In this document: piece after piece, positions 1,589 through 3,642 of the stretch
Layout: every line of letters begins with the position of its first letter
Numbering within the stretch: the first letter of the stretch is position 1
Virus record (IMG/VR): IMGVR_UViG_3300005282_000001
Span: 1 to 64,000 of that record
Reading direction: 5' to 3' (one strand)
Origin: a virus
Taxonomy: Duplodnaviria; Caudoviricetes
DNA: 64,000 nt
Program-made: the position numbers and the translations under genes
Notes under the pieces: model-generated
What the model saw: only the letters and a program-made list of their open reading frames with translations
Told to the model about the DNA's origin: nothing
The model's database searches: none

Positions 1589-1617
1589 TTGACATTGGTA
1601 CCTATATATGCTATTAT
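1589..1617 (+). promoter_or_regulatory. Early promoter P1
   Basis: TTGACA-17 bp-TATTAT with extended -10 TG. Confidence 0.8.
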
Positions 1618-1670: not shown

Positions 1671-1699
1671 TTGACATCTTATGTACCATATGATATAAT
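1671..1699 (+). promoter_or_regulatory. Early promoter P2 (perfect consensus)
   Basis: TTGACA-17 bp-TATAAT with extended -10 TG. Confidence 0.9.
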
Positions 1700-1749: not shown

Positions 1750-1989
1750 ATGAAACCAGAAGAAATGACTTACAGACAATTGTATACTAATAGAAAGCGT
1801 AAAGACGTTCAAGAGTATATCGAACGGATTACAGAAAGAAGCACAACAGCAGCAGATGGATCATTAGTTTTTCATATTTTGCTTGATGGTAAAATAATTG
1901 TATCTACTAATCTTCCTAGCAAAGCAGAAAAGGGGTACAATAGTTACGTAAGAGAACAACGAATAAACAAAAGAACCTGTCGAAACTAG
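1750..1989 (+). CDS. Hypothetical early protein
   Basis: First ORF after P1/P2; start uncertain (1741, 1750 or 1765); stop TAG lies in hammerhead stem III. Confidence 0.65.
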   Translation: MKPEEMTYRQLYTNRKRKDVQEYIERITERSTTAADGSLVFHILLDGKIIVSTNLPSKAEKGYNSYVREQRINKRTCRN

Positions 1990-2054
1990 GGCTAATCCCC
2001 TAGTCTACCGTTGAGTGGTCCTCACGGTGCTGATGAGACAAACTGAGGTGGCCA
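1975..2054 (+). ncRNA. Hammerhead ribozyme, type II
   Basis: Stem II TGTC(1978-81)/GACA(2037-40); GAAA 1982-85; stem III CTAGGG/CCCTAG; GUC triplet 2003-05; stem I TACCG/CGGTG plus TGAG/CTCA; core CTGATGA 2030-36; loop I TGGTC can pair with GGCCA (2050-54). Confidence 0.9.
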
Positions 2055-2086
2055 GGGATACGCTGGCACTCACAAGGAGATACATC

Positions 2087-2422
2087 ATAAAACAAAAGTA
2101 TACTTATAAAGCCATTCGCAACATGGGATTACCAGTGCTTGCCATTGGATACTGCGACTTACAAACGTTATTCCCTGAAACAGATGCATTCGGATATTCG
2201 TCAGGAACTAATGGTTGGAACTGTAATTATCATAGGACCTATGGGGGAAGCAGAGCCATTGTAAGCACTGGATATCGTCCAATAGGGACAACGGTTCCCC
2301 GTGATATTGTGAAGAAATACGAAGCAAAAGCAAGGGAACTTCCTACAAGCTTATCTTTTGATCGTATAGAGAAACTTTGTGAGTTACAAAAGGACTTCAT
2401 AGTAGAAGCATTAGCCGTCTGA
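2087..2422 (+). CDS. Conserved-looking phage hypothetical protein (GYCxLQ...GWN...STGYRP motifs), bracketed by ribozymes
   Basis: ORF-track frame 2015-2422; the best SD AAGGAG (2074-79) points to ATA at 2087; stop TGA is part of the second hammerhead core. Confidence 0.75.
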   Translation: MKQKYTYKAIRNMGLPVLAIGYCDLQTLFPETDAFGYSSGTNGWNCNYHRTYGGSRAIVSTGYRPIGTTVPRDIVKKYEAKARELPTSLSFDRIEKLCELQKDFIVEALAV

Positions 2423-2472
2423 AGAGTCGCTGAGAATTGCGACGAAACGCCTTCGGGCGTCACGGCAACTGC
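2408..2472 (+). ncRNA. Hammerhead ribozyme, type I
   Basis: GCCGT-CTGAAGA-GTCGC-TGAGAATT-GCGAC-GAAA-CGCC-TTCG-GGCG-TC-ACGGC: all core nucleotides and three stems present; predicted cleavage after C2461. Confidence 0.93.
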
Positions 2473-2811: not shown

Positions 2812-3642
2812 ATGGTAAAAGGATATAAGGTATTTAACAGTGACTGGACGTGTAGAGATGGTTTTAAGTACAAGGTGGGGGAAACGTATACCCAAGATGG
2901 AAAACTGGAGGTTTGCGGCAATGGATTGCACTTCTGCAAAAAGGCCGTTGATTGCTTTAATTATTATAGTTTTGATTCTTCAAATCATGTTGCTGAAGTG
3001 GTTGCCTATGGGAAAATAGCAGAACAGGGTGATAAATGTTGTACAAATAAACTAAAGGTTGTTGGGGAAATTTCGTGGCAGGAGGTATTAAACTTAGTCA
3101 ACACAGGAGACGACAACACAGGCTACCGCAACACAGGTAGCTTCAACACAGGTAACTTCAACACAGGCTACCGCAACACAGGTAACTTCAACACAGGTGA
3201 CCGCAACACAGGAGACGATAACACAGGTAACTTCAACACAGGTAACCGCAACACAGGCTACTTCAACACAGGTAACCGCAACACAGGTGATTGCAATATT
3301 TCAAACCATGAAACTGGAGTTTTTTGCACAGAAGAACATAAGATTCGTATATTCGATATTGAATCGGATATTACTTTTGAAGAATGGAGAGATTCCAGGG
3401 CATATTGGATATTATCTAAAGTGCTACTAATAGAGTGGGTTGAAGAGTATAGTATGACAGACGGAGAAAAAAGCAAACACCTAGAGTATAAAACTACTGG
3501 AGGGTATTTAAAGAAAGTTGATTTATTTTCTGCTTATGCTGCATGGTGGAAAAATCTTAGCGATGCTGACAAGAGTACCATTAAATCTATCCCAAACTTT
3601 AACTCTAAGAAATTTAAGATAATCACTGGAATCGAAGTATAG
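2812..3642 (+). CDS. Pentapeptide (NTGxx) repeat protein
   Basis: 13 tandem NTGxx units; GAGGAG SD. Confidence 0.85.
   Translation: MVKGYKVFNSDWTCRDGFKYKVGETYTQDGKLEVCGNGLHFCKKAVDCFNYYSFDSSNHVAEVVAYGKIAEQGDKCCTNKLKVVGEISWQEVLNLVNTGDDNTGYRNTGSFNTGNFNTGYRNTGNFNTGDRNTGDDNTGNFNTGNRNTGYFNTGNRNTGDCNISNHETGVFCTEEHKIRIFDIESDITFEEWRDSRAYWILSKVLLIEWVEEYSMTDGEKSKHLEYKTTGGYLKKVDLFSAYAAWWKNLSDADKSTIKSIPNFNSKKFKIITGIEV
3100..3294 (+). repeat. 15-bp coding tandem repeat x13
   Basis: AACACAGGnnnnnnn units encoding NTGxx. Confidence 0.95.

Follow-up and report, generated by a model that had tools for sequence, protein, structure and literature searches.

The boundary between the first two early genes of this phage genome carries what we take, with a probability of about 0.8, to be a genuine and probably active type II hammerhead ribozyme, predicted to act as punctuation in an early operon. 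The element overlaps the stop codon of the upstream gene, retains an intact catalytic core and stands on the same strand as a type I hammerhead 370 nt downstream, with a single small gene between the two. The class to which it belongs is well established and abundant in phages: Perreault et al. 2011 (PMC3088659) had already described type II hammerheads, the pseudoknot that they contain and the placement of hammerheads around prophage genes. This copy alone does not change existing knowledge. What it offers is a clean additional example of two hammerheads of different permutation that are predicted to excise one early phage gene, in a cassette that is kept in one relative.

The window, as we call the whole stretch of DNA analyzed, covers the initial 64 kb of an IMG/VR virus record of 76,575 bp, rated complete by CheckV. 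The genome encodes a DNA polymerase, a primase/helicase, a ribonucleotide reductase, a portal protein and a terminase. The type II hammerhead lies at the start of a plus-strand gene block, just 3' of two near-consensus promoters, in the following arrangement:

1589 to 1617, plus strand: sigma-70-like promoter (TTGACA-17-TATTAT, 11/12, TG extension)
1671 to 1699, plus strand: sigma-70-like promoter (TTGACA-17-TATAAT, 12/12, TG extension), with an expected transcript start near 1706
1750 to 1989, plus strand: first early ORF (gene 1), 79 aa from ATG 1750 or 82 aa from GTG 1741
1978 to 2047, plus strand: predicted type II hammerhead ribozyme, with complete core and stems I to III, matched by RF02276
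2074 to 2079, plus strand: Shine-Dalgarno sequence AAGGAG, 7 nt before the codon at 2087
2087 to 2422, plus strand: second early gene (gene 2), 111 codons, a phage-only family of unknown function
2414 to 2466, plus strand: type I hammerhead, stem I GCCGU/ACGGC, predicted cleavage C2461/A2462

No plus-strand terminator was predicted from the promoters to 2812, the start of the next larger gene. The final four codons of gene 1 and its TAG stop (1987-89) are inside the ribozyme, the stop falling within the 5' strand of stem III. A homologue of gene 1 in L228, a related phage sequence (P0017, 70% identity), ends earlier and is followed by a promoter, not by a ribozyme; a marginal match between gene 1 and the ORF upstream of the homologous ribozyme in contig L124 (E 0.35) was set aside. 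Scans of IMG/VR for 8-mer peptides, with either flanking protein as query, returned zero relatives. A search of sequencing runs listed no RNA run with the window sequence, all matching runs containing at most 8% of the sampled words.

The hammerhead core is complete. GAAA (1982-85), GUC (2003-05) and CUGAUGA (2030-36) keep the invariant positions throughout, namely C3 U4 G5 A6 N7 G8 A9, G12 A13 A14, the A15.1:U16.1 pair (A1985:U2004) and an H17 that is not G (C2005), and cleavage is predicted after this C17, between C2005 and U2006. Stem III (1985-2004) has 7 bp, from A1985:U2004 to G1991:C1998, and is closed by the loop 1992-97; stem I (2006-2029) consists of 6 bp, a bulged U2012 and 3 bp below the loop UGGUC; stem II pairs GUC 1979-81 with GAC 2037-39, with U1978:A2040 in addition. 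In the cmscan alignment (model positions 1-66) the junction has the type II order, stems III and I being loop-closed and stem II open, and the minimum free energy (MFE) fold of the region contains stems I and III. The first-pass annotation, which had proposed a type II hammerhead overlapping the gene 1 stop, gave correct coordinates throughout, and its identification is upheld by the intact core, the type II order and a full-length match to RF02276 (1-66). This match scores 31.1 bits; the gathering score is 37. At gathering thresholds Rfam accordingly reports nothing in the window, and the match is seen only with E-value thresholds; with E<=1 it is the sole Rfam match in the window (E = 0.025 for the whole window against all 4227 families, E = 7e-6 for the single family against the genome). 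Our own descriptor, which covers all three hammerhead permutations, was run on the 76.5-kb genome and on 30 shuffled genomes. It found exactly two elements in the genome, the type II at 1978-2047 (stems I/II/III of 6/4/7 contiguous bp) and the type I at 2414-2466, and no hammerhead in the shuffled genomes.

Homologues of the gene 2 protein are found in short metagenomic contigs (ENA/Logan assemblies), and the ribozyme accompanies several of them. In L124 a homologous type II hammerhead (39.1 bits) precedes the gene 2 homologue, and L126 has an incomplete type II copy in the same position, at the contig edge. The 1.2-kb contig L127 contains three near-identical type II copies flanking small genes, one per gene boundary (233-300, 483-550 and 994-1061; scores of 43.2, 40.8 and 38.7 bits), where the window has one type II and one type I element. 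The L124 and L127 copies all exceed the gathering score (38.7-43.2 bits), and the window copy lies 8-12 bits under these homologues. Together with the window, L124, L126 and L127 form a sub-family that shares the stem III sequence CUAGGG...CCCUAG, a GACAAAC tail and a stem I of 6 bp, a 1-nt bulge, 3 bp and a 5-nt loop. L124 and L126 resemble the window in having the hammerhead upstream of the homologous gene, and L124 also has a type I hammerhead behind that gene, i.e. the same cassette. The window differs from the sub-family in its loop I (UGGUC vs UUGUU), in eleven stem I substitutions, all of them compensated, and in its upstream gene. A further homologous type II copy, in L128 (about 397-460), has the core mutation CCGAUGA.

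Stem I is the most diverged part of the element, with 13 of 24 bases identical to L124 by our own count. In an alignment of six sequences, five of them mutually close, all nine of its pairs are kept and four of the nine carry changes on both sides (double compensatory); stems II and III are invariant in the alignment and thus uninformative for covariation. The whole structure is 98.4% paired in the same alignment, versus 41-50% when partners are slid by 1-3 columns. Judged from the aligned sequences, the stem I pattern is the signature of a fold under selection, and the fact that some 11 substitutions separate this stem from that of L124 without the loss of a single pair speaks for selection still acting on that fold.

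The element is patchily distributed. Neither the closest complete relative by terminase (G001, also L122; 58% identity) nor L123, also close by terminase, has a hammerhead match, and L228 has a promoter in place of the ribozyme, which indicates that the element is dispensable in the lineage. A degenerate hammerhead upstream of the shared UTR module in L228 was considered and rejected, since its core fails (GAGAA for GAAA, unpaired spacer). When viral, metagenome and genome collections were searched with the sub-family stem III pattern, they yielded other hammerheads, with no further member bearing the GACAAAC tail and no clue to the host; the single match in the genome collection was a Nitriliruptoria MAG. 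Up- and downstream genes are swapped among the window, L124 and L228 at the ribozyme boundaries. The repeated ribozyme/UTR modules may also act as recombination points for gene cassettes, as this arrangement suggests.

Perreault et al. 2011 (PMC3088659) describe type II hammerheads, with their pseudoknot, as common in bacteria and prophages, report several hammerheads around single prophage genes, and show that the examples tested cleave both in vitro and in E. coli. In D. vulgaris, Olzog et al. 2021 (PMC8782182) demonstrated in vivo cleavage for three type II hammerheads that neighbor phage genes. When IMG/VR was scanned with one restrictive pattern (GUCGAAAC...GUC...CUGAUGAGAC), type II hammerheads were located on at least 120 stretches of DNA, with up to seven copies on some, and ribozyme punctuation is common in phage contigs (at least 120 type II and at least 81 type I stretches of DNA). 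The matches listed share a layout of stop codon, ribozyme, pseudoknot, Shine-Dalgarno sequence and start codon. Among them, the upstream stop is 2-6 nt before the ribozyme in 108 of 143 type II hammerheads (in 50 of those 108 it includes the first G of GUC), a loop I/tail pseudoknot of at least 4 bp begins 0-2 nt after GAC in 125 of 145, and the next start codon follows stem II at a median distance of 28 nt (143-145 type II examples). The window element shares with the RF02276 class an identical catalytic core, capped stems I and III, an open stem II of 3-4 bp, complementarity between loop I and the 3' tail, an intergenic location in a phage operon, at a stop codon and shortly before the next Shine-Dalgarno sequence, and a second hammerhead, so that one gene is bracketed. 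It differs in its score, under the gathering threshold, and in its canonical pseudoknot, which is down to 4 bp, two of them G-U. Stem III contains the stop codon (+8), an internal position found in 5 of 143 phage examples among the matches listed, and the start codon is 47 nt after stem II, farther than the median among the matches listed, owing to the conserved UTR stem-loop that stands in between.

The second boundary of the cassette is occupied by the type I element, a different permutation of the hammerhead. Its core CUGAAGA (2419-25) includes the TGA stop of gene 2 (2420-22), followed by stem II (2426-43; stem-loop II is GUCGC-UGAGAAUU-GCGAC), GAAA (2444-47) and stem III (2447-60) with a UUCG loop; its MFE fold is exactly the three-way junction. 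The Rfam type I model, which is eukaryote-based, scores it at 17.6 bits. The stem II/core signature (stem-loop II GUCGC-UGA(A/G)AAUU-GCGAC) occurs at no fewer than 81 IMG/VR loci, stem I has at least 4 bp in 76 of 82 type I copies among the matches listed, and L179 has a type I hammerhead whose stems II and III are identical in sequence to those of the window copy. The L124 type I copy is homologous and carries a compensatory change in stem II. Thus ORF 2087-2422 is bracketed by a type II (1978-2047) and a type I (2414-2466) hammerhead on one strand, with no terminator predicted between them, and L124 has the same two-hammerhead arrangement around the homologous gene. A weaker "Hammerhead_1" match at 2529-2575 (14.3 bits) was rejected, as it is a long hairpin without a core.

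By analogy with characterized members of the family, cleavage of the transcript, its site and timing and its effect on expression can be envisaged as follows. Transcription from the promoters at 1589-1699 would pass through gene 1 (1750-1989), and once RNA polymerase had moved beyond about 2045 the RNA could fold into the three-way junction of stem III hairpin, stem I hairpin and short open stem II and cut itself, co-transcriptionally, between C2005 and U2006. The upstream product would terminate with the stem III hairpin and bear a 2',3'-cyclic phosphate; the downstream product would begin with a 5'-OH directly at the stem I hairpin and carry the UTR stem-loop, the Shine-Dalgarno sequence and gene 2. 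A second cut, by the type I hammerhead at 2461/2462, would release gene 2 as a 456-nt monocistronic RNA (2006-2461). In this way a polycistronic early transcript would be converted into separate RNAs whose ends and UTRs set individual stability and translation rate, and it is likely that the stability and translation of neighboring early genes would be uncoupled. What bacteria and phages gain from their hammerheads has yet to be settled (PMC6765202), and in a cultivable phage with this cassette one could ask if cleavage governs how stable, or how well translated, the early genes are relative to one another.

The gene that these cuts would release has an unusual codon at its start. This is ATA, 7 nt after the strong AAGGAG, where all 14 homologues have ATG (MKQKYTYK...); the ATA may be a genuine but rare non-canonical start, the result of a down-mutation or an error of assembly. 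In the automatic annotation the gene (P0001) starts instead at the AUG within the ribozyme core (2033). Compared with L124, gene 2 has a dN/dS of 0.20, which indicates purifying selection. Its protein is modeled with confidence (pLDDT 89); comparison of the model with the PDB gave nothing at E<=0.001, its only matches are uncharacterized phage proteins, and searches of Pfam, PHROGs and PADLOC returned nothing.

Type II hammerheads typically have a pseudoknot between loop I and the 3' tail, and in the window loop I has two candidate partners, one of which overlaps the UTR stem-loop:

2016 to 2020, plus strand: loop I (UGGUC), loop-side pseudoknot partner
2041 to 2045, plus strand: canonical-position pseudoknot strand (AACUG), homologous to AACAA/AACAG in relatives
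2044 to 2072, plus strand: two-part 5'-UTR stem-loop, lower stem UGAG/CUCA, upper stem GCCAG 2051-55 / CUGGC 2063-67
2050 to 2054, plus strand: candidate distal pseudoknot strand (GGCCA), 5 bp with loop I, non-canonical position, not conserved

The sub-family's own pseudoknot is at the canonical site, where UUGUU pairs with AACAA or AACAG. In the window this site forms 4 bp with loop I (U-G, G-U, G-C, U-A) and a C/A mismatch, at about -0.7 kcal/mol, compared with -7 to -11 kcal/mol for the canonical pseudoknot of typical members; one of the pairs is a double change, from U-A to G-U. The first-pass annotation had instead paired loop I with GGCCA, said to lie just 3' of stem II. The complementarity holds, with four Watson-Crick pairs and one G-U (-4.8 kcal/mol), and GGCCA is the strongest partner of loop I in the window, but the strand starts 10 nt after GAC, beyond the 0-2 nt seen in most of the phage examples listed. 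As a functional pseudoknot the pairing is not supported. Shuffled tails give an equally good match in 16% of cases, and the tail AGCCA is shared by L124 and L126, whose loop UUGUU pairs poorly with it. Paired cells amount to 76.7% at the distal position and 93.3% at the canonical one. On grounds of homology and geometry we provisionally favor the canonical site, so that the tertiary contact accelerating cleavage would most probably correspond to the canonical pseudoknot of the family (2016-19 / 2042-45). Because the canonical pairing is weak in the window copy, cleavage may be slower than in typical members; given that cutting the pseudoknot from 6 to 4 bp slowed cleavage roughly 20-fold (Perreault et al., PMC3088659), the activity of an element with a weak 4-bp pseudoknot could be poor.

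A hairpin formed by GCCAG and CUGGC had also been put forward, as a competitor that sequesters GGCCA and tunes the ribozyme. The hairpin itself is well founded: it is present in the MFE fold and, at -9.1 kcal/mol, is more stable than the distal pseudoknot, its 3' strand being transcribed 13 nt after GGCCA. It is the upper part of a stem-loop that stands just ahead of the Shine-Dalgarno sequence, and it covaries (GCCAG/CUGGC, GCUAG/CUAGU, GUUGG/CCAAC, AUGG/CCAU and GACGA/UCGUC) in five contexts, those of the window, L228, L125, L128 and L127b, with covariation in the lower stem as well. Since the hairpin covaries and is present in L228, which has no hammerhead there, it looks, as far as comparison of these sequences goes, like a feature of the UTR and not a regulator of the ribozyme, and neither its role as a switch nor the wider idea of conformational tuning is sustained. 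A related UTR module stands ahead of an unrelated gene in L228. The 50 nt from the core to the start codon of gene 2 (2037-2086) are 96% identical to L124, compared with 75% in the coding sequence (dS about 0.94), reflecting either strong constraint beyond the hairpin or recent recombination. The translational tuning that the same annotation had read into the overlap with the stop codon likewise finds no backing in the layout, because a stop abutting the ribozyme is ordinary (the 108 of 143 listed examples at 2-6 nt). What the position of the stop codon inside the stem III/GAAA region does imply is that translation of gene 1 must transiently unfold them, and such unfolding of stem III and the GAAA core could delay cleavage.

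An alternative that we consider unlikely is that the hammerhead is active and its contact has moved to GGCCA 2050-54, with stem II extended by ACCU 1975-78/AGGU 2046-49 over a 6-nt bulge and the UTR hairpin competing, so that the rate depends on the fold. The distal duplex has 5 bp and is stronger than the proximal one; the differences from L124 in loop I (two) and in the tail (one, A to G at 2050) all raise the distal complementarity; and ACCU/AGGU would set the distal strand directly atop the extended stem II. The extension is, however, absent in L124 and so unsupported, and the distal pairing is not kept in either L124 or L126, which share the tail. The frequency of equally good matches in shuffled tails and the offset of 0-2 used by 125 of 145 listed phage type II hammerheads also tell against a distal contact, as does the observation by Perreault et al. 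(PMC3088659) that activity drops by orders of magnitude when nucleotides are inserted around the pseudoknot. As for the competition, the UTR hairpin is the stabler structure, its 3' strand is made 13 nt later, and it occurs without any hammerhead in L228. It is thus quite improbable that a distal contact on a bulged, extended stem II shares its strand with the UTR stem-loop and sets a cleavage fold against a UTR fold; were this true, the element would be a natural hammerhead switch through which the processing of the operon is tied to the condition of the translation-initiation region downstream.

The low score and the weakened canonical pseudoknot are also what would be expected of a decaying relic, with an intact core and no useful cleavage, which survives only because stems I and III still serve the mRNA as plain hairpins or because decay has not had time to set in. 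The ATA that replaces the family's ATG in the following gene, the related phages without the element and the L128 copy with its mutated core fit such a history. Every invariant core base is nonetheless retained in the window, the substitutions in stem I have cost no pair, the downstream gene is under purifying selection and the accompanying type I hammerhead is intact and differs little from many phage copies, and we therefore regard a relic as very unlikely. Chance resemblance to the hammerhead motif, without function at the RNA level, is the least credible reading of all, its probability being close to nil. It could appeal to the score below the Rfam gathering threshold and to a control search in which 11 of 14 control genomes had matches to RF02276 below threshold; against it stand the E-value of 7e-6 for the genome, zero descriptor matches in the 30 shuffles, above-threshold homologues at the same gene junction, the compensatory changes in stem I and the second hammerhead downstream on the same strand. 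The reading that we prefer remains that of a genuine and probably active type II hammerhead with a weakened canonical pseudoknot.

Several features of the region beyond the cassette may also be recorded. Right after the type I cleavage site, a conserved non-coding stretch (2470-2640) is common to the window, L125 and L126. Two hairpins are predicted in it, one of them the long stem 2529-2575, and show some compensatory changes; Rfam gives no match to the stretch. This stretch is followed by a 41-codon ORF (2642-2767) with its own Shine-Dalgarno sequence. The gene at 2812-3642 encodes a DUF7666 domain together with pentapeptide repeats (NTG(N/D/Y)xNTG...) and matches phrog_14105.
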